A stretch of 35,014 nt of DNA from Priapulus caudatus (GCF_000485595.1 NW_014577075.1:994321-1029334); one strand, 5' to 3'; shown: positions 4,201 through 33,733, numbered from the stretch's first letter. Notes: a model not told the origin generated them from the letters alone. Translations and numbers: made by a program.

Positions 4201-6789
4201 ACCATAGAGTGTAGCAGTTACTGATAAGACCAGGTAGAACTTTGAAATTCACAGCTGAAAAAATGACAAAGAATTAAAATTGTACACATATTATGTCCTT
4301 GTCTTATATAGATTGTGAGATTAACAAAATCTTGCAATATCATCGCATTCATGTCTCACACTTTATACAAGTGGCAATATGTACCCTATTCACGGACAAA
4401 TATATCATCTCTGTTGTATCGCAACACATGGCTGAACACGCCTTGAAATCTCATTCAAAAACTTAATGAGTTCCTGTTTCATTGTCCTATCCAACAAATG
4501 CTAATAAATTTACCTGGCACCTTATTAGATGTAATCACTTGCAACAACTATTGAGCCCTCTTCGTAAAGACACAGTACACGCGCTGGGCCTAAACACCGC
4601 CCTTTACGCACCTGAAGCAGAAATAACAGTATTAAGAGTTTTAAGTTTGGGGCTCGGAAGAAATACTTAATAGCATCTAGCATATAGACCTGGCTACATA
4701 TTAACCTGGGTTTTGCGAGAAAGTTGGTAGTTATATTGTATGTAAACTTACTTACTAAGTCACACTGAGTATTTTCAAAAGTGCACAGGATGGTTTTTGT
4801 TAACTTTCCTATCCAATAGTTTGGCGTATCATTTAGTAAATGGCTTATGAATCAGACTTCATATCCTAGGAACCACTTAATCAATGCATACTGCATAGCA
4901 TAAAATGAACACGACAATAGAAATATGACAATAGTTCGTAGATGAGCATATAAATATGGACTTTATAGATTTTTGTAGCCATGTAGAGTCTTGCGTAACT
5001 ACTTGGGCAAACATACATAAATACCGACATATTGGCGGTTCGCTCATGAAGTGTCCTTGTACCTCATCAAGCCTAGATCCGTGAAGTGTGATCAGGATTG
5101 GCTAGTATATATATTACTCCCTCACTGCATAGGAATAATTTAACCGATACCGCAATAAAACTTCTGATCTATCGAGCAGCATCACACGGTCTGTGCCTGC
5201 ACCTATATTTAGCATTACACTCACCTCACACTACTCACATTTTCACTCAACATTCATCTCTGCGCTACCATGGAGCACACCTTCAACTGAAGTTGATGTT
5301 TCCCCACGCTGCACTATCTGTCTCCATCTAACACCCAGTCTACACCAATCAGGCCTAAAACAGAAAGAAGCATATATACCCATTAATAGAAGCAGTACAC
5401 GTTAATAATCATAAGGTGAACAAGTGCTCTAAATGATAAGGAAAACTAAAAAAAAGAAACATTCCAAAAAAGCTCCTCACCACAAAACATGAATTTTCAT
5501 AGCATCTATGATCATTCATAATCATCTCTGGTTGTAATCCAGAGATTTCTATTTCCATATATTGAATATAACGATCCCACTAAAACTTGTTACACTTATT
5601 TCTTACCATTAGGATTGCATCACACGCACCATGCTATTAATATACGAACTAACCATATATATGTGATTATAGATAAATTTCTGTACATAAATTAATGACA
5701 TCAATAGCTAAACCTTCTCCACTATCATAGAATACAGATTCCCAAAATTCCAGCCTGCAGGTCGCTCATCTCCAGACATATCACCCTGTCCATATAAACG
5801 AACCATGCACAATCCATGTTCTGGCACCCAGTCACCGTCGTAGCAACACTGCCTGTCGTAATACCAACCCTCTACTCATAACAAATAAAGCCTCTTCTCC
5901 TTAATTAATAAAAAAAATCGACCGACACACTTGTAGGATGTATGGATGTCTCATGAGCTTAGTATAGCTCATAGGTCTATGTCGAGGGTACTACTGCCAA
6001 ACGTACCCTGGTACGCCGGTATACTCAGAACTTATCCTGGTAAACCTATATGAGGTTAGGTTAGATAGGTAAGATAGGCGTAGTCACTCCTAGACGCGTT
6101 ATGGAGTAGGCGAGTACGGCCCGCATATAGAATAGTACCAGGGTACATCCGATACCGGACCGAACAGGGTAACGTTTTTTTCTTTTCCGGCAGTACGCTG
6201 GAGGAATAGACCCTGCAGCCTAACTTAAGCCAATAGTCTTAATCCCCCAGGGTAACTGCGAGACGTACCCCTGTAACACTGAATGTTAGGTAGGGTTAGN
6301 NNNNNNNNNNNNNNNNNNNNNNNNCGTAATGTGTGTGTGTGTGTGGCATGTGTGTGCTGCTGTGTGTCGTGTGTCGTGTCGTGTGTCACAAGTGTGTGAT
6401 GTAGCGTGGTCGTTACAGTCTCTACCTGGGTCAGTTTTCCCTCCGTGTACATAACTACACAATTATTGTTCAAGTGTACAGACATAGACAGTATTCAAGT
6501 GCTACGCAAATCACGAGTCCCCACAGTTCCCGGAGAACCCCCTCTTTTAAAACGAGTCAGTTCCTTTATAGGCATTGCATTTCAACGAATCCTAGCTTCC
6601 GAGACCCCCATTTCGAACATAGCAGTTCCAGCAGTATCCCAATTCAACAAATAGTTCCAGAAGACCCCCAATTTCTAGGTCTGGTAGTTCCAGAGCGCCC
6701 TTTGTGAACCTTCGCAGTGGCGACAATAACCTACCCATATGTGGAGGTGAGTGCCCCCCCCCAACGTGACATGCTCGCATGCCATTGGC

Positions 6790-8300
6790 CGCGGGCCGCG
6801 ATGTGTGACTGGGTAGGGACATGGTCCGGGGAACCATCCGCGCGTGTGTGGACTGGGGAGGTGGACATGGTCCGGGCCGCGTGTGTGGACTGGGAGGTGG
6901 ACATGGTCCGGGCGGTGGTGTGGACTGGGAGGTGACATGGGTCCGGGACACGCGTGTGTGGACTGTTTGAGGTGTACTGATTCTGGGCCGCGGTGTGGAT
7001 GGGAGTTGGAGCATGGTCCGGGCCGCGCAGTTGGACTGGAGCTGTGTACATGTCCGGGCCGCGTGATGTGGACTGGGAGGTGGTACCATGTCCGGGCGCT
7101 GTGTGTGGACTGGGAGGTGGATCATGCGTCGGGCCGCGTGTGTGCGACTGGAGGTGCACATGTGCCGGGTCTGCGTGTGTGGACCTGGGCAGGGTACATG
7201 GTCCGGGCCGCTGTGTGTGGACTGGGAGGTGTACATGGTCCGCGGCCGCAGTGTGTGGACTGGGGGTGGACATGGTCCAGGCCCGCCAGTGCTGTGGACT
7301 GGGCCATGTACATGATACTGCGGCGCATCACCATAACCCGCATCGCGGCCCGCGTGTGTGGACTGGGAGGATGGTGTCCGGCCGGCCGTTGTGTGGACGG
7401 GCGGTGCACATGTCGGTCCGCGTGTGTGCGACTGGGAGGTGGAGCTGGTCCGAGCCGCCGTGTGTGCGAATATCGGAGGTGAGCATGGTCCGTGGGGGCC
7501 GCAGTGTGAATGACTGGGAGGTGGACTGCGTTCCAGGGCCGGCGAGTAGTGGCACTGAGGAGCGTGGACATGGTCCGGGCCGCGTGTGTGGCTGGGCCCG
7601 TGACATGGTCGGCCCAGCCGTGTGTGACTGGGAGGTGGACATGGTCCGGGCCGCCCGTGTGGTGGACTGGAGTGTGGACATGGTCGCGCGGGGCCGCTGT
7701 GTGTGGACTGGCAGAGTGGACATGGTCCGGGGCCGCCGGTGTGCTGGGACTGCGGAGGTGGACATAGGTCCCGGGCCGCTGCATGTGACTCGGCCTGTTG
7801 CACATGGCCCGGGCCGCGTGTGTGGAACTGGGAGGCTGGACATGCTGTCCGGGCCGCGCTACCACAGGACCCGCGCCTCCCTTGACCATCCCTGCGCAAA
7901 GGCTCCAGCAACCCAACCAGTGTGTGGGACTGGAGAGCCGTGCGACATGGTCGGCGATTGTGTGGACTGGAGGTGGACATGGTCCGGTGCCGCGTTGTGC
8001 TGGCTGGGCCGATGTACATGGTCCGGGCCGCGTGTGTGGGACTGGTGAGGATGATCATGGTCGGGGCATGCGGTTGGACTGGGCAGGACTCCGTGACACA
8101 TTGGTCAGGCCTGGGTCGTGGACTCGGCATGCCAATGGTCCGCGGCCACCCGTGTGTGGACTGGCGGCCTATTGTACATGGTGCCGGGCGCGGGGGTGTG
8201 GATTGGCGCCGTGTGACGATGCGATCCGGCCGCGGGCTGACTGGACTCGTTTTCCGTGCACATGGTCCGGGCGCGGGTGCTGCGACTGGGCCAATGCACA
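6790..8300. repeat. GC-rich 36-bp minisatellite, copy 1 (~40 units)
   Basis: Unit GTGTGTGGACTGGGAGGTGGACATGGTCCGGGCCGC with heavy indel noise. Confidence 0.95.
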
Positions 8301-8446
8301 TACGTGTCAGACAGTGGCAGCCGCCTTCTCGACGTAGTCGGCGTCCAGGAGCTACAGGACGGTCCCTTCAGTGGTAGGTTGTTGCTGGCCTTGCTGACGG
8401 CAGTGGCACCCGTGCGGCTTCGTCGCTATCTGATCGTTGACGGCCC

Positions 8447-12384: not shown

Positions 12385-13450
12385 CGCACGCACGCACGCA
12401 CGTACGCTACGCACGCACGCATGCACGCGACACAGAGGGAGGAGAGAAGAGAGTTTAAGAATGTGCGTAACTGCGTTTAGTTCAACAATGTCTTAATCAT
12501 AAAACCGAAGAATCTACATGATAGTTATTAGTGATCTTTAGTGATCAATCTTGCTTGCTAATGAGAGATATGTTCTACTTAAAGATTATTGTTGTAGGTC
12601 GAATGAATGCTGTTACATTTAGTTTACTCAAACGTGCCTGCAAATACCATCTCTGCTTCTCATTTTTGAATTTCTGGGAGACCCCCAGACCACCCGACCT
12701 GTGTGCTTACACATCCACTTGTACCCGCTAGCCTATCGGCCCCGGAAGTCTGATAGAGCCTAGGCTGCCCATTTTTTGCACTGTAACACTGCTATAGCAC
12801 CATTAAGACAATAAAACACTACTAGGTTAGGCTAGATTAGCATGTAGATGCGCCGATTCGCCCTGCACGAAATGACAGTGCCCCAGCAAGTTAGTCTGGT
12901 CTATATACTGCAATGACTAAAATAGTGGCTAGATGGTGCTTTTTTTAGACGAAGGAGTTTAAAGATTAGGCAATGACCAAGAAAAATAGGTAATGTAAAA
13001 CTATGTTCAACAGTGAGGAAAAAAAAACATGTAAAAGTGCATTATAGGTTATATCTTTTTAAGAAATTTTAGCCGACACCAATTTAGCGTGACGAGGCTC
13101 TTCAACGTCTGTGTTTCAACCGCTTGGCGTTAGGGGTCAATTTAGCTTGACTGATTGGGTTCACCAGCCGGCGAGCTTCCGCACGCGCAAACCACGTTCC
13201 CGACCTGATGGCGACTGCCTCCCCCAGGGGAGGAGGGCCACTCCATATTATTGCATGGTGAGTAGTGCCGCGGAGGGATCCCATGATTTTCAACCCTTTA
13301 AACTTTTCCGTTGCCGTGCTTCGCATTTTTAAGATTATCTCGTTACCAGGGCGATCAAAGTTTAAGTTACCATGAGATCTTACATTTTTGCCGTTCCGGA
13401 GACCTAGTTTTAATATTCCGTTCAGGGCTCGTCTTCAGAATACGTTGACG
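12385..13450 (+). repeat. Indel-rich duplicate of ~135-1200
   Basis: Collinear match (gagtttaagaatgtgcgtaactgcg ... gaccta gttttaatattcc) with frequent 1-nt indels. Confidence 0.9.
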
Positions 13451-15555
13451 CGTAATGTGTGTGTGTGTGTGGCATGTGTGTGCTGCTGTGTGTCGTGTGT
13501 CGTGTCGTGTGTCACAAGTGTGTGATGTAGCGTGGTCGTTACAGTCTCTACCTGGGTCAGTTTTCCCTCCGTGTACATAACTACACAATTATTGTTCAAG
13601 TGTACAGACATAGACAGTATTCAAGTGCTACGCAAATCACGAGTCCCCACAGTTCCCGGAGAACCCCCTCTTTTAAAACGAGTCAGTTCCTTTATAGGCA
13701 TTGCATTTCAACGAATCCTAGCTTCCGAGACCCCCATTTCGAACATAGCAGTTCCAGCAGTATCCCAATTCAACAAATAGTTCCAGAAGACCCCCAATTT
13801 CTAGGTCTGGTAGTTCCAGAGCGCCCTTTGTGAACCTTCGCAGTGGCGACAATAACCTACCCATATGTGGAGGTGAGTGCCCCCCCCCAACGTGACATGC
13901 TCGCATGCCATTGGCCGCGGGCCGCGATGTGTGACTGGGTAGGGACATGGTCCGGGGAACCATCCGCGCGTGTGTGGACTGGGAGGTGGACATGGTCCGG
14001 GCCGCGTGTGTGGACTGGGAGGTGGACATGGTCCGGGCCGCGTGTGTGGACTGGGAGGTGACATGGGTCCGGGACACGCGTGTGTGGACTGTTTGAGGTG
14101 TACTGATTCTGGGCCGCGGTGTGGATGGGAGTTGGAGCATGGTCCGGGCCGCGCAGTTGGACTGGAGCTGTGTACATGTCCGGGCCGCGTGATGTGGACT
14201 GGGAGGTGGTACCATGTCCGGGCGCTGTGTGTGGACTGGGAGGTGGATCATGCGTCGGGCCGCGTGTGTGCGACTGGAGGTGCACATGTGCCGGGTCTGC
14301 GTGTGTGGACTGGGCCGTGTACATGGTCCGGGCCGCGTGTGTGGACTGGGAGGTGGACATGGTCCGGGCCGCGTGTGTGGACTGGGAGGTGGACATGGTC
14401 CGGGCCCGCCAGTGCTGTGGACTGGGCCATGTACATGATACTGCGGCGCATCACCATAACCCGCATCGCGGCCCGCGTGTGTGGACTGGGAGGATGGTGT
14501 CCGGCCGGCCGTTGTGTGGACGGGCGGTGCACATGTCGGTCCGCGTGTGTGCGACTGGGAGGTGGAGCTGGTCCGAGCCGCCGTGTGTGCGAATATCGGA
14601 GGTGAGCATGGTCCGTGGGGGCCGCAGTGTGAATGACTGGGAGGTGGACTGCGTTCCAGGGCCGGCGAGTAGTGGCACTGAGGAGCGTGGACATGGTCCG
14701 GGCCGCGTGTGTGGCTGGGCCCGTGACATGGTCGGCCCAGCCGTGTGTGACTGGGAGGTGGACATGGTCCGGGCCGCCCGTGTGGTGGACTGGAGTGTGG
14801 ACATGGTCGCGCGGGGCCGCTGTGTGTGGACTGGCAGAGTGGACATGGTCCGGGGCCGCCGGTGTGCTGGGACTGCGGAGGTGGACATAGGTCCCGGGCC
14901 GCTGCATGTGACTCGGCCTGTTGCACATGGCCCGGGCCGCGTGTGTGGAACTGGGAGGCTGGACATGCTGTCCGGGCCGCGCTACCACAGGACCCGCGCC
15001 TCCCTTGACCATCCCTGCGCAAAGGCTCCAGCAACCCAACCAGTGTGTGGGACTGGAGAGCCGTGCGACATGGTCGGCGATTGTGTGGACTGGACGTGGA
15101 CATGGTCCGGTGCCGCGTTGTGCTGGCTGGGCCGATGTACATGGTCCGGGCCGCGGGTGTGGGACTGGTGAGGATGATCATGGTCGGGGCATGCGGTTGG
15201 ACTGGGCAGGACTCCGTGACACATTGGTCAGGCCTGGGTCGTGGACTCGGCATGCCAATGGTCCGCGGCCACCCGTGTGTGGACTGGCGGCCTATTGTAC
15301 ATGGTGCCGGGCGCGGGGGTGTGGATTGGCGCCGTGTGACGATGCGATCCGGCCGCGGGCTGACTGGACTCGTTTTCCGTGCACATGGTCCGGGCCGCGG
15401 GTGTGGACTGGGCCATGCACATTGTCCAAGTGGCAGCGCCTTTCTCGACGTAGTCGGCGTCCAGGAAGCTACAGACGGCCTTCATGTAGGTGTTGCTGGG
15501 CCTTGCTGACGGCAGTGCACCCGTGGGCTCTCGGTCATCCTGATGTTGACGGCTG
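13451..15555 (+). repeat. Near-identical duplicate of 6325-8445
   Basis: Identical from cgtaatgtgtgtg onward; identical ORFs at 6406 and 13532. Confidence 0.93.
13917..15420. repeat. GC-rich 36-bp minisatellite, copy 2
   Basis: Same unit; nearly identical to copy 1 including irregular units. Confidence 0.95.
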
Positions 15556-17463: not shown

Positions 17464-17900
17464 ACGGACGCACGGACGATCATGCGATTCTACAAGCTGC
17501 ATCTGACTATGTCAGATGAGCTAAAAACTATAGATTAATCTGGTATAATTTCAAATTCATTATGATTTGCAAAGAAGTACTAATCTATGCCAGAGAATGT
17601 ATACAATAACAGTGGAAAATAATAGGTATAAGAAACATTTCATAGTATAATTTGAATGGACATACAGAATTGTTTCCATTGCTAATGCAATGACGGAGAA
17701 TGTTAATATACTACCATATATTTACCAAGCACTGTTTGTTATGAAATAAGACCATGAAGAGAGTGACTTTGATATAATATTATACAATAGGTTAATCAAT
17801 TTTTCCACTTTTTACTCTTTTAACTGGCCAATTAATATAATGCTTATCAATTTAAAGATTCCATTGTTCATTAACTGTTGTTTTACAATCAAATGCCCAT

Positions 17901-18284
17901 TTATTTCTTAAACTTCTTGTGAATGCCAGTACGCCTGAATTCTGATCGCTCCTCTAAATACTCTTGAGTACACATTTCTTTAAAGGCGCTGTCCTGGTAC
18001 CAAAGCATTAGGCAATTCTTCAGTGATTTATTTTCTTTCCTGCATGCCCACGACATTGACACAGTCCTACCGGCACAACACTCAGTAAAATCTTGCACTT
18101 CTTTCACACACTTCTGCTTTGCTTTATCACGCATCTTTTTCGGTATGAGGATTTCCTGTTCCACTTTTCTCAGCGATCGATTGTCTGGATCGCCGACACC
18201 AGCTGGGCCGCCTCCAAGGTTTGGAGCAACAACACCAGTAGTAGGAACACCTACACTATTAGTTTCATCACTAACAGGAGCCAT
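17901..18284 (-). CDS. CMC1: COX assembly mitochondrial protein homolog (twin CX9C), 127 aa, uninterrupted ORF
   Basis: Translation MAPVSDE...GDPDNRSLRKVEQEILIPKKMRDKAKQKC-x9-C(C)...WAC-x9-CLMLWYQD...EYLEERSEFRRTG matches the remembered CMC1 family pattern. ATG at 18284 is in a strong GCCATGG context. Confidence 0.92.
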   Translation of the reverse strand: MAPVSDETNSVGVPTTGVVAPNLGGGPAGVGDPDNRSLRKVEQEILIPKKMRDKAKQKCVKEVQDFTECCAGRTVSMSWACRKENKSLKNCLMLWYQDSAFKEMCTQEYLEERSEFRRTGIHKKFKK

Positions 18285-18418
18285 GGCATATAAACTGTGA
18301 GCGTATTTCACCTAAATGTTGCTATTAATGGCAAACAAGAACACAGAATTCTCAAGATACACCGTTATCTTATCAGCCTTGAGTTGCATTAAAGACACTC
18401 TTCAGTATATTATCAGTC

Positions 18419-18571
18419 CTAGTCCCACTTGGACTTCTTTGCAGGCGCTCTAGCAATGCTATGATCTTCGGATGCACTGTACATCTTGTTTTCTTCAGTT
18501 GCATGAAGATATGCAATGTATGCAACACATCCACTAATGGTAAGGAGTCCAAAGGCCATAATATATTTATT
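18419..18571 (-). CDS. SMIM8: Small integral membrane protein 8, coding exon 2
   Basis: Acceptor ttttgttacag|AAT, phase 0. Reads [31 protein letters not shown]...KKSKWD*, i.e. the TM helix and the conserved SKWD C-terminus. Total 113 aa. Not present in the supplied ORF track in this frame. Confidence 0.9.
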
Positions 18572-19758
18572 CTGTAACAAAACCGATAACATGATTTAGC
18601 TGTTTGCAAATACTGAGACACGTATCAACACACACACACAAAAAAGTCGCAGCACTAACATTTTCCCATACTTGGTTCTCATGTCTGCCAGGTATAAACC
18701 TAAGTTCTAAACAGCACTACCTGCAGCTGGCTAGGCAAGCATACTGTTTAATAATGAAAGTGTCAATGACACTATAGCTCACCTTGGGTGCAATAGAAGA
18801 GGGAAATTATATTTAAGATTTGGTAAGTGTTTCATTTATTGTCATTATTCCCTGTTTTATACTAATAGAAATTTCACTGCTTTGTTTCAGGGTTAGTTTT
18901 GATGCTAAAATAAATGTTTCAGATCTGAAAGTCTGAAATCTGGGCGAGAGATGGCGCTATGCCTAAATGGTCGCCATTTTGGTTTTTGATTATCGTGTAA
19001 ATAAAAGCAATAAAATATTCCAGTCAAAATTACAGTAACGAAGAATCTAAAACACAATATTACAATTACAAAATAATCACGTCTGATGGCTGACCGTAGC
19101 CTTGCACGTTTTGGTTAGATGGGTTCGCGGCCCACTGTTTCTGACAGGCAGTGCGAGTTTAGCGCTGGAGACCAGTCTACTTCCTGGCTAGCATTGGTTT
19201 ATAATTTTATGACATAATGGCGATGTCACGTGCCGATAGAAACGGCTGTGATTGGCCATTTGTAAAGTGTCGCCGGCGACAGTCGCTGGAAAATAGAAAC
19301 GTTTCTAAATATTTTTGTCGTCGAGGTTGTCGTCGGTCGTCGTCGCGTCAGTGTGCAATGGCTCATAGGAAACAATAGTTACTAATTTTCTGAAAAGTCG
19401 TTTGTCGTTACGGTCGGTCGTAAACCGACCAGGCTCTCCGACTGTTACACGGCGGAGAACACACCTCTCGCCACGTAGTGTTAAGCGAGATGGGAACTTG
19501 TGGCTAGGTCGGTCGTTGTCGCTGCAGTGTGTCTTGGCCTTTACCCGACTGCAACGGCCTGCTCAGTGCCCTAATTTCTAAACAGCACCGTCAATGGGTA
19601 GCTCCAAGAAACGGTATTGCTAGGGTTAGAATTATAGACAAATTATAGACGAATTATAGACACTCCGTCGCACAGCCTGGTCGGGCTACGTCAATGGGTT
19701 ACTACTGCACTGGTTAAGGAATAAAACACCCTCATAATTCATGGAATGCAATAATTAC

Positions 19759-19947
19759 AGGACGTATAAACAGCTCTGGATTGACCGCTCTAAACAATGT
19801 TGTCGTTGTAGTTGATCTCAATCCTGGATCAGCGTATTCTCCTGGTATCGCCGACTTCGGTGAACTTGAACTTGAAGTTGATGTTGAACTTGAAGTATTG
19901 TTAGCATGTGGTGAAGAATTCCCGACACACGGTTTTGTTCTTGGCAT
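19759..19947 (-). CDS. SMIM8: Small integral membrane protein 8, coding exon 1 (63 codons)
   Basis: ...PGLRSTTTTTLFRAVNPELFIRP followed by donor CCT|gtaatt; matches the SMIM8 signature PGLR..TTTLFRAVNPELFIKP. The start codon is the only in-frame ATG in this ORF and is inferred. Confidence 0.88.
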
Positions 19948-20589
19948 TGACTCGGTGGTAGTGAAATATTCCAATGAATTCACAAAAACGGTTATATATG
20001 TGACTGTGAACAGTCACATAGAATGGTGTGGTAACTAGTAACACGAGTTACTCTGCAGTTACCAGCCACAAATGGCCGAACAATTTTGGTGTTGATGCTG
20101 TATCCTACTGCCCTCTAGCGTCGATGTGAAGACATTGCAGAAAGAAATATCACTTTTTATATAAACATTTGATACGGGCATTCTAATATCACATTTCTTG
20201 TGATATCAATATGCTATATTCATAAATATATTTGGTATAAATATATTCATAAATATATGGTTTTAAGATATTAAAAAAAATATTAAAAATATTTAAGATA
20301 TTAGAAAGAAGCCTGAACATATTTCAAACACATAAATGACCAACCGGTCGCTGTGGCTACACCACCTGACGGAATGTCACAACTACACGACAAGACCAAT
20401 TTTACTTCTAATGATTTCTAGACGTCCACGAGTCAACTAACTTGCGTGCATAATGCAAAATATTGCACTCTAGTACCGAATTTCAGCGAAAACAAAATAA
20501 AAAAAGGCCTTTTCTGGGGGCGAAATAGTGTAATTTGCGGTGAACAACTTGTAAAGGCTTGCTGTTGTATACATGTATATTGTTATAGT

Positions 20590-20858
20590 TCAGTGAGCAG
20601 AACAGGTAGCAGATGTAGTGCTTGCAAAACTGCTTGCTGAGCATGTAGAGAGCGAGCGGGTGGACGCAGGAGAAAGGATAGCCGGAAGGCGACGATGCGA
20701 AAGTAGTGCTAGCATTGGTTGTAGTCGCGATAGAGCTCTGTGTGGGATGAAGGTGAACCAGAGCGTGTACGCGTAGGTAGATGTGACGCGGTACCCACAG
20801 CAGATTGACGCAGAAGATGAGAACCATGCATGCAAGCGACCTCCTTCCTTGCCTCCAC
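20590..20858 (-). pseudogene. Decayed TM6-TM7 exon of a CCHamide/bombesin-type neuropeptide GPCR
   Basis: Acceptor ctcttgcag|, then across frameshifts VEARKEVA.MVLIF...WVPRHIY...LWFTF...DYNQC*HYFRIVAF...SCVHPLALYMLSKQFCKHYICYLFC. This resembles the EARKKVAKMVL / WLPRHIY / NSCVNPIALY.LSKQFRKHF motifs. Contains a stop and indels. Confidence 0.72.
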
Positions 20859-20865
20859 CTGCAAG

Positions 20866-21123
20866 AGAGAGAGGAGGGTGTAATAGAGAGGAGGGTGTGA
20901 TAGAGAGGAGGGTGTGATAGAGAGGAGGGTGTGATAGAGAGGAGNNNNNNNNNNCGATGCGAAAGTAGTGCTAGCATTGGTTGTAGTCGCGATAGAGCTC
21001 TGTGTGGGATGAAGGTGAACCAGAGCGTGTACGCGTAGGTAGATGTGACGCGGTACCCACAGCAGATTGACGCAGAAGATGAGAACCATGCATGCAAGCG
21101 ACCTCCTTCCTTGCCTCCACCTG

Positions 21124-21172
<49 letters not shown>

Positions 21173-21640
21173 GGCGTAATAGAGAGGAGGGTGTGATAGA
21201 GAGGAGGGTGTAAAAGAAGAGGAAGATGTCATAGAAGAGAAAAATGACAACCATACGAGCGAGGCTTCTTCCTTGCCTCCACCTGCAAGAGAGAGAGGAG
21301 GGTGTGATAGAGAGGAGGGTGTGATGGAGAGGAGGGTGTAATAGAGAGGAGGGTGTGATAGAGAGAAGGGTGTGATAGAGAGGAGGGTGTGATAGAGAGG
21401 AGGGTGTGATAGAGAGGAGGGTGTAATAGAGAGAAGGGTGTGATAGAGAGAAGGGTGTGATAGAGAGAAGGGTGTGATAGAGAGGAGGGTGTGATGGAGA
21501 GGAGGGTGTAATAGAGAGGAGGGTGTAATAGAGAGGAGGGTGTAATAGAGAGGAGGGTGTGATGGAGAGGAGGGTGTGATAGAGAGAAGGGTGTAATAGA
21601 GAAGAGGGTGTGGTAGAAGAAAGGTGTGATATAGGACAAA
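20866..21640. repeat. 18-bp minisatellite (AGAGAGGAGGGTGTGAT/AAT-type) with (GA)n tract, interleaved with GPCR exon-start copies
   Basis: Direct tandem repetition at 20866-20944 and 21178-21640; (GA)n at 21126-21168. Confidence 0.93.
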
Positions 21641-32715: not shown

Positions 32716-33733
32716 CAGGGGCGTAGCCAGTATGTAGCACTGTAGGCCCGGCCCTATACTTTTTTTGGCCAAGTTATCTTTTTTTTAAACACCTATAATT
32801 CAAATCCATAAGCTTGCTGGACGAGTTTAAAAGTCTAGACAGGAAAAACTATTGAAATGAACGTAGCAAGAATGTGGCTAAATTAGGTGACCTATTCTTC
32901 TGTCATCTAGGCCTAACGCCTCATGGTTGAATGAACAACCATGGCAAAGGTACTCTGCTAGTAAAGACGGTGTTTACTGTTGTTACTGTCGTTTATTCGG
33001 TACCGGCGGTAGTGGTGAAGCGGATCACAGCCTGTGAGTGACTGGAAAAACATTTCTCTTATGATTAAGAGGCACCTAAAATGTAAGGCCCATCTAACAA
33101 ACACTGTCAAAGCAGAGAGTTTCCTGTCTGTATCACTTGGTAAACAAAAAGATGTACGTAGTCAGTTGTCATCAGCTTTTTCAAAGCAAATAGAACGTAA
33201 CCGTAAAATCATATCTAGCATACTCGATGTAATCATTCTTTGTGGTAAACAGAACATACCATTAAGAGGTAGAACCGAAGACAGAAGCAATTTTATGGCT
33301 CTGATCAATTTCCATGCTAAGGCTAACCCTGTCCTTGAACAGCATTTTGCCAATGCACCCAACAATGCTAAATATCTGTCACCACATATACAAAATGAAT
33401 TGATTGAGCTTTGTGGAGAACAGATAAAGGATACCATTGTAAAAGATTGTAATGATTCTGTTTGCTTCGGCTTGATGGCTGATGAGGCTACCGATTGTGC
33501 AACACTTGAGCAAGTTGCAATGTGTGTTAGATTTGTACAAAGGAAAACAAACAATATCGCAGTATGTGAAGTTTCTTGGCTTCAAAGATGCGTGTTCAAC
33601 TACAGGTGAAGCCTTAGCAAACCAGTTCTGCCAAACACTAGATGAGTGTGGCATCAATGCCAATAAGATGAGAGCCCAATGCTATGATGGGGCCTCTAAT
33701 ATGAGCGGAAAGTATTGTGATGTCCAGCCCTAG
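32716..33733 (+). mobile_element. Truncated hAT DNA transposon with frameshifted transposase (ZMYM1/THAP12-like, DUF4371-type)
   Basis: Left end CAGGGGCGTAGCCAG. W..YSASKDGVYCCYCRLF zinc-finger-like motif. ORF 33034-33609 with CGKQNIPLRG, NAKYLSPHIQNELI, LMADEATD, QVAMCVRFV, then a frameshift to KFLGF...RAQCYDGASNMSG. Confidence 0.88.

Follow-up and report, generated by a model that had tools for sequence, protein, structure and literature searches.

Two short ORFs for mitochondrial proteins, SMIM8 and CMC1, lie head to tail on one strand of a Priapulus caudatus scaffold. Are they expressed from a single mRNA, and does their pairing say anything about what SMIM8 does? CMC1 is a respiratory-chain (complex IV) assembly factor, and the preliminary description of this DNA had proposed that the two ORFs are co-transcribed, which would tie SMIM8 to cytochrome c oxidase biogenesis. 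We analyzed the whole 35,014-nt stretch that contains the pair (the window). The reading that we favor, and hold to be reasonably probable, is a single bicistronic SMIM8-CMC1 mRNA made from the SMIM8 promoter, likely by way of an intron-free CMC1 that landed in the SMIM8 3′ UTR.

SMIM8 and CMC1 are tandem ORFs separated by 134 nt

The whole SMIM8-CMC1 locus lies on the minus strand. SMIM8 comprises 113 aa and is encoded by two exons. Exon 1 (19759–19947) covers 63 codons, begins in a weak start context and contains the conserved FRAVNPELFI motif. Exon 2 (18419–18571) encodes the transmembrane helix and the KSKWD end, includes an in-frame Met68 in a strong context, and terminates in TAG. The two exons match consecutive positions, 5–31 and 32–81, of the PF14937 (DUF4500) profile with E values of 3.7e-8 and 4.2e-12. 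Together with this match, a single transmembrane helix (19-residue hydropathy of 1.94) and the C-terminal SKWD seen in the alignment place the protein in the SMIM8 family. The intron between the exons (18572–19758; 1187 nt, GT-AG, phase 0) is packed with repeats that other loci transcribe.

CMC1 (17901–18284) is a single exon of 127 aa with a twin CX9C motif. The architecture bears out all that the preliminary description states as fact: the SMIM8 stop at 18419 and the CMC1 ATG at 18284 lie on the same strand with a 134-nt spacer between them; the spacer has neither AATAAA nor ATTAAA; the start context is weak for SMIM8 (tcaATGc) and strong for CMC1 (gccATGg); and the CMC1 ORF, which matches PF08583, is uninterrupted from 18284 to 17901. 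The spacer (18285–18418) is kept in the mature RNA. Its single variant hexamer is AATATA at 18411, and it holds weak AUGs at 18389 and 18289. Stop-codon read-through and a fusion ORF were considered and rejected, as each of the three spacer frames is closed by stops and the RNA data show no alternative joint.

The two ORFs share their flanks. The 5′ leader of the common transcript (19948–20101) has its 5′ end at ~20096–20101, as given by the starts of two cDNA contigs, and contains, 72 nt before the SMIM8 AUG, a start-stop uORF (AUG-UGA, 20014–20019) whose context is weak. The common 3′ UTR (17620–17900) has apparently heterogeneous ends; among its signals, AATAAA at 17905–17900 overlaps the CMC1 stop and AGTAAA lies at 17816. 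An Rfam search of the window returned zero matches.

Contigs and read depth argue for one shared RNA

Seven RNA runs, X1 to X7, were aligned to the window; X1 and X2 are cDNA assemblies from two studies, and X6 consists of raw reads from a third. X1 gave a single 1003-nt contig, in which 20096–19759 is spliced to 18571–17930 with 0 differences from the window, of which it may not be independent. X2, which comes from a different study and carries a different organism label, gave a single 1322-nt contig (20101–19759 and 18571–17620) with 12 substitutions and 3 gaps. The spliced X2 contig contains both complete ORFs; the X1 contig stops 29 nt short of the end of the CMC1 CDS. Contig depth is constant over the spacer, at 73.8 in X1 and 10.7 in X2, and there is therefore no second contig in the spacer. 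The SMIM8 splice joint 18571/19759 was found in 4/4 runs (X1, X2, and 11 reads each in X5 and X6).

The raw reads give the same picture. At a resolution of 37 nt, X6 depth is 36.5x in exon 2, 39.4x in the spacer and 47.8x in the first three CMC1 bins, versus 0.32x in the adjoining intron. The corresponding values for X7 are 7.8x, 6.0x, 11.4x (first CMC1 bins) and 0x. Depth drops to zero in X1, X2, X5 and X6 at the flanks 20164–20271 and 20596–20700; because these flanks are silent in four runs, DNA carry-over is not the source of the RNA signal. Although covered ~40x in X6, the spacer has no joints, no loose ends of the kind left by a poly(A) tail or a leader, no depth step and, among the positions listed, no piles of read starts or ends. 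The only loose end in X6 at the locus is the SMIM8 exon junction. At this depth, the RNA shows neither a dominant start nor a dominant poly(A) site between SMIM8 and CMC1, although a minor isoform may exist.

Base composition is consistent with these data. The CpG observed/expected ratio is 0.54 for the stretch between the 3′ UTR and exon 2, both included, compared with 0.96 for exon 1 and the sequence upstream of it (P = 0.04). Given that invertebrates methylate gene bodies, CpG depletion over the spacer is what one would expect of a gene body and not of a promoter.

The ends of the RNA could also be examined. The X1 contig extends 23 letters past 20096, and these letters match the sequence that a published methods section gives for a template-switch oligo. 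The presence of this adapter means that X1 is cDNA, with its 5′ end at this position and without a spliced leader. An operon resolved by spliced-leader trans-splicing was rejected, given that the spacer has no loose ends and that the 5′ adapter is joined directly to genomic sequence at 20096. At the other end, 20 molecules begin at 17805 in X6, and depth fades by ~17670.

The reads are 51–52 nt long, unstranded and shorter than the 134-nt spacer, so that the linkage of the ORFs is seen at the level of contigs and depth, and a contig that crosses two genes does not by itself prove one transcript. The spliced contigs from two studies and the even spacer depth in a third nevertheless support the proposed co-transcription. 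Contigs and depth together make it very probable that SMIM8 and CMC1 are transcribed as one unit and that most CMC1-bearing RNA carries SMIM8 too.

Variation along the X2 contig is uneven. All 12 substitutions fall in CMC1 and the 3′ UTR (665 nt) and 0 in the 5′ leader, the SMIM8 exons and the spacer (630 nt). Such clustering has P = 3e-4 under an even spread and may reflect a mosaic of haplotypes or a 5′ half that is under stronger constraint.

CMC1 has the features of a working gene

CMC1 matches PF08583 with an E value of 2e-17 (63.4 bits, versus a cut-off of 22), and its best matches, with identities of up to ~60%, are named COX assembly mitochondrial protein homolog. The homologue searches returned an identical match for neither SMIM8 nor CMC1. 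The protein contains C59-C69, C81-C91 and C105, and it retains all 12 invariant columns of a 52-sequence alignment. Scored against a profile built without it, CMC1 reaches 173.9 bits; 26 held-out homologues score 144–202. Its N-terminal GGPxGxGDP motif is common to the arthropod, nemertean and Aplysia rows of an alignment and is not found in the echinoderm or primate rows, as would suit an invertebrate host that is probably a protostome. Of seven variants in the CMC1 ORF, five are synonymous, versus 24% expected (P = 0.011); the other two change the protein, one of them at the conserved K83. On these sequence features, CMC1 is likely translated. Its counterparts in yeast and human face the intermembrane space and stabilize COX1 (PMC7909247).

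Nine AUGs precede the CMC1 start

How would CMC1 be made from the shared RNA? The spliced sequence up to the CMC1 AUG is 625 nt long and contains 9 AUGs, of which one opens the start-stop uORF, one is the weak start of SMIM8 and seven are further ones. Two of the nine lie in the spacer, and SMIM8 Met68 is in a strong context. The context is weak in 7/9 (P = 0.08). The count of 9 compares with 10.8–14.7 expected, a depletion that is not significant (P = 0.08–0.36). Because nine AUGs come before the CMC1 start, simple leaky scanning to CMC1 is doubtful, and the mechanism implied by the preliminary description is weakened.

We give a slight preference to inefficient synthesis of CMC1 from the shared RNA by leakage and reinitiation over a clean scan to the tenth AUG. 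Ribosomes would leak past the weak uORF and SMIM8 starts, translate short internal ORFs and then, at low efficiency, reinitiate at the strong CMC1 AUG; a low CMC1 output may suffice for an assembly chaperone. The Trp-Asp codons of SMIM8 spell UGGGA, the motif of calicivirus-type termination-reinitiation. This mechanism was rejected, since any W-D pair spells UGGGA and the next start is 134 nt off. A conserved assembly factor placed after nine AUGs is a translation puzzle, and one that is testable.

The obstacle that nine upstream AUGs pose to scanning is also an argument for a mixed locus. Here, the read-through RNA would contain both ORFs, but CMC1 protein would come from a minor monocistronic RNA that arises by an internal start or by processing, and on the long RNA CMC1 would be 3′ UTR. 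Two AGs in the spacer, at 18313 and 18296, resemble acceptors, and just 45 of 159 dicistronic loci in Drosophila are exclusively dicistronic (PMC4528330). Depth, too, climbs from 5′ to 3′: in X6 it is ~13–21x in exon 1 and increases inside the CMC1 ORF from 48x to 74x, the latter in its 3′ half. However, this rise does not set in until within the CMC1 ORF, which is too late for a full-length CMC1 mRNA, and depth has no step in the spacer, where loose ends, joints, listed start piles and a second contig in X1 and X2 are likewise absent and CpG is depleted. The rise is most simply a 3′ bias, which could hide a minor shorter or monocistronic RNA. We consider a mixed locus unlikely.

The pairing is absent from the three other species checked

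The preliminary description had named a lack of conserved adjacency among the observations that would refute its proposal, and such a lack is what we see. SMIM8 and CMC1 are unlinked in 3/3 other species in which both could be placed, a sample that includes none known as close kin. In the millipede Chamberlinius, CHUAL_008127 and CHUAL_000809 lie on separate contigs (7.5 and 15.9 Mb); the nemertean Tubulanus also has the two genes on different contigs, of 31.9 and 16.5 Mb; and the human genes, whose aliases are C6orf162 (SMIM8) and C3orf68 (CMC1), are taken as unlinked. The two invertebrates come from a look-up of 28 SMIM8 and 2 CMC1 clusters, in which Chamberlinius and Tubulanus alone could be paired with a CMC1. 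In a third homologue search, the best 120 matches were vertebrate or unnamed proteins.

A metagenome scan with the CMC1 alignment yielded at least six loci (L001 to L006), of which 0/6 contain SMIM8; these loci are too short or too spurious to count. L001 and L002 carry only ~50 and 135 nt upstream of the CMC1 start, L003–L005 are without the first exon, and L006 is without a CMC1 profile match. On L001, an insect-like contig, another ORF (~520–1158) lies on the opposite strand, tail to tail with CMC1; judged by eye from a motif, it is a putative tRNA-splicing endonuclease subunit ORF. Runs X3 and X4, from other organisms, gave no alignment at 80% likeness and are uninformative on synteny. The bicistronic unit is most likely limited to this lineage. 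At the level of literature listings, our open-access search returned no report of a SMIM8-CMC1 transcript.

The locus is a weak clue to SMIM8 function

Could the two genes nevertheless be kept together by function? In an operon-like pair, SMIM8 would act in complex IV biogenesis, for example in copper supply or assembly of the COX1 module, and the bicistron would be kept to fix the protein ratio, as for sloth1/sloth2. Both products are mitochondrial (SMIM8, MitoAtlas preprint; CMC1, PMC7909247), and we would not, a priori, have thought a chance insertion beside a second small mitochondrial gene very likely. Human SMIM8 is described as a single-pass protein of the inner membrane with a predicted AGK contact (MitoAtlas preprint), and an all-by-all prediction for human proteins pairs it with AGK, SLC25A3, SLC25A1 and ARF5 (PMC13601606). 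The SMIM8-SLC25A3 prediction has an ipTM of 0.59–0.70 in 7/7 species, and SLC25A3 is listed under copper metabolism (PMC13601606); yeast Cmc1 binds Cu(I) (PMC7909247). These two copper connections provide a thin link between SMIM8 and complex IV.

Other observations point the other way. The genes are unlinked in all three other species, and no SMIM8-CMC1 fusion occurs among 274 proteins from the SMIM8 searches, as judged from the best 150 of 228 representatives. SMIM8 and CMC1 are not paralogues: they belong to different Pfam families, and the CMC1 profile matches 0/274 of the same proteins. The four predicted human partners of SMIM8 include no complex IV factor, and in the same table the predicted pairs of CMC1 are DNA2, AIFM2 and ACOT13, with no SMIM8-CMC1 row; this is a weak point, as the table also misses known partners of CMC1 (PMC13601606). 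A functional pair thus appears improbable. The role of SMIM8 in cytochrome c oxidase biogenesis, which the preliminary description had derived from the pairing, finds no support in a locus whose adjacency is absent in 3/3 species and whose proteins are unrelated, and we rate a functional link of SMIM8 to complex IV as having a low probability.

A more elaborate version of this idea would be that the retroposed CMC1 replaced the ancestral gene and has been kept behind SMIM8 through a common process. SMIM8 would be an unrecognized inner-membrane factor that acts via SLC25A3 in copper delivery or in assembly of the COX1 module, and the SMIM8 ORF and the uORF would throttle CMC1 synthesis past nine AUGs in a stress-responsive manner. 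This is a long shot; if true, the locus would point naturally to what an orphan mitochondrial protein does in humans.

With good probability, the promoter is shared because both proteins are broadly expressed housekeeping components of the mitochondrial inner membrane and intermembrane space, and not because SMIM8 acts in the CMC1-COX1 step. As the linkage is not conserved, the locus is a weak clue to what SMIM8 does; the absence of the pairing from three other animals means that it likely says little on this question.

CMC1 may have reached the SMIM8 3′ UTR by retroposition

The structure of CMC1 in other loci bears on how the bicistronic unit arose. In the insect-type loci L003–L005, CMC1 is interrupted at two points where the window ORF runs on without a break: L003 and L004 have an acceptor before the GDP motif and an intron of 297–316 nt ~35 codons later, and L005 has an acceptor and a donor. 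L001 and L002 likewise read as uninterrupted CMC1 and may be cDNA. CMC1 in the window is an intronless downstream ORF with intron-bearing homologues, as is characteristic of a retroposed ORF. A target-site duplication was not found around CMC1, where the best direct repeat is 8 nt long and was matched by 334/500 shuffles, and a poly(A) remnant is not evident in the window sequence. Both marks of retroposition decay in old insertions. We are somewhat inclined towards retroposition, rather than intron loss in place following a rearrangement, as the origin of this CMC1. An intron-free copy would have come into the SMIM8 3′ UTR in this lineage, and the SMIM8 promoter would then have driven a single bicistronic mRNA.

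Two last readings are very unlikely. In one, SMIM8 and CMC1 would be independent genes with overlapping or abutting UTRs that only the assembler has joined; in the other, CMC1 would be a retrocopy in the SMIM8 3′ UTR that is transcribed but not translated. De Bruijn contigs can merge overlapping transcripts, AATATA lies directly past the SMIM8 stop and a parental CMC1 may exist elsewhere. Against both readings, coverage neither dips nor peaks in the spacer, the reads show no sign of a poly(A) end or a start there, and the CMC1 ORF is intact, with all 12 invariant residues, a strong start context and an excess of synonymous variants.

Comparison with known bicistronic systems

The sloth1-sloth2 locus of Drosophila (SMIM4/C12orf73) resembles SMIM8-CMC1 in that one transcript encodes two small mitochondrial proteins of the respiratory chain, with a weak upstream and a strong downstream start context (PMC9681215). 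In contrast to SMIM8 and CMC1, which are unrelated, sloth1 and sloth2 are likely paralogues that act in one complex; their spacer is 5 nt long and leaky scanning has been shown, whereas CMC1 follows a spacer of 134 nt and 9 upstream AUGs; and they are linked in choanoflagellate, sea squirt, lamprey and fly, whereas SMIM8 and CMC1 are unlinked in 3/3 species (PMC9681215). Amphioxus SYCP1 offers a parallel for the proposed origin: a gene that ancestrally had several exons is expressed there as a single-exon copy from a neighboring promoter, in a retrogene replacement with co-opted regulatory elements (PMC5803294). CMC1 is at most a candidate for such a replacement, and its copy sits behind another coding ORF.

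The closest precedent, STREMI-SLC35A4, has several features in common with SMIM8-CMC1. In that transcript, an upstream ORF of ~100 aa encodes a microprotein of the mitochondrial inner membrane, the downstream ORF is unrelated and intronless with intron-containing homologues, and both genes predate their linkage, which is confined to one lineage (PMC13303939). The same source gives no direct functional interdependence of the STREMI and SLC35A4 proteins despite their co-transcription, and it counts intronless downstream ORFs as 50% in human bicistronic transcripts (PMC13303939). SMIM8-CMC1 would be an invertebrate example of the route derived there from vertebrates, in which an intronless gene is captured behind a gene for a mitochondrial microprotein (PMC13303939). 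It differs from STREMI-SLC35A4 in that the downstream product, CMC1, is also mitochondrial and the host is an invertebrate, and its linkage is known from contigs and short reads under just two organism labels, which are near-identical. Annotation pipelines would tend to lose one of the two ORFs at such a locus.

The putative fly CMC1, CG17996, is absent from the dicistronic set in File S1 of the Drosophila survey, and the SMIM8-CMC1 pair was not seen among the entries covered (PMC4528330). The loci of that survey are similar to SMIM8-CMC1 in other respects: the partners are unrelated in 82%, the spacers range from tens to hundreds of nt, mitochondrial cases such as Ccdc56-mtTFB1 (88 nt) are included, and most loci fail simple scanning rules (PMC4528330).

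Repeats and other genes in the window

The SMIM8 intron is rich in repeats. These (18650–19740) are abundant in RNA from other loci, with reads that are mostly 90–99% alike and have many loose ends, and they include a 19-nt direct repeat with copies 871 nt from each other and a 24-nt inverted repeat with arms separated by 224 nt. The repeats are likely nested non-autonomous transposons. Another short repeat (20371–20498) precedes the SMIM8 start by ~270 nt and has an RNA depth of up to ~1570x in X5 and no Rfam match; its reads come from another copy of the repeat, because they show fixed differences from the window.

The window also contains longer duplications. A 2.1-kb segment, which includes a 36-bp GC-rich minisatellite, occurs in two copies (6325–8444 and 13451–15553) of 97.8% identity, and a 1.1-kb segment in two copies (133–1247 and 12385–13512) of 86%. 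Long repeat-derived ORFs have no Pfam match. The duplications reflect either tandem duplication or assembly redundancy near gaps. At 20693–21631, a 262-bp unit is duplicated over a 10-N gap, together with a 17-bp minisatellite and a (GA)n tract, and has no Pfam match; on the minus strand, its units combine a pyrimidine tract with AG and resemble repeated acceptor sites.

On the plus strand, a multi-exon saccharopine dehydrogenase-like gene (24680–~27200; PF03435, E 5e-5, slightly below the cut-off) is divergent from SMIM8 and starts 4.6 kb from the SMIM8 start. Further along the same strand, 33061–33730 holds a DUF4371 fragment, derived from a hAT/ZMYM-type transposase and apparently split over two frames.
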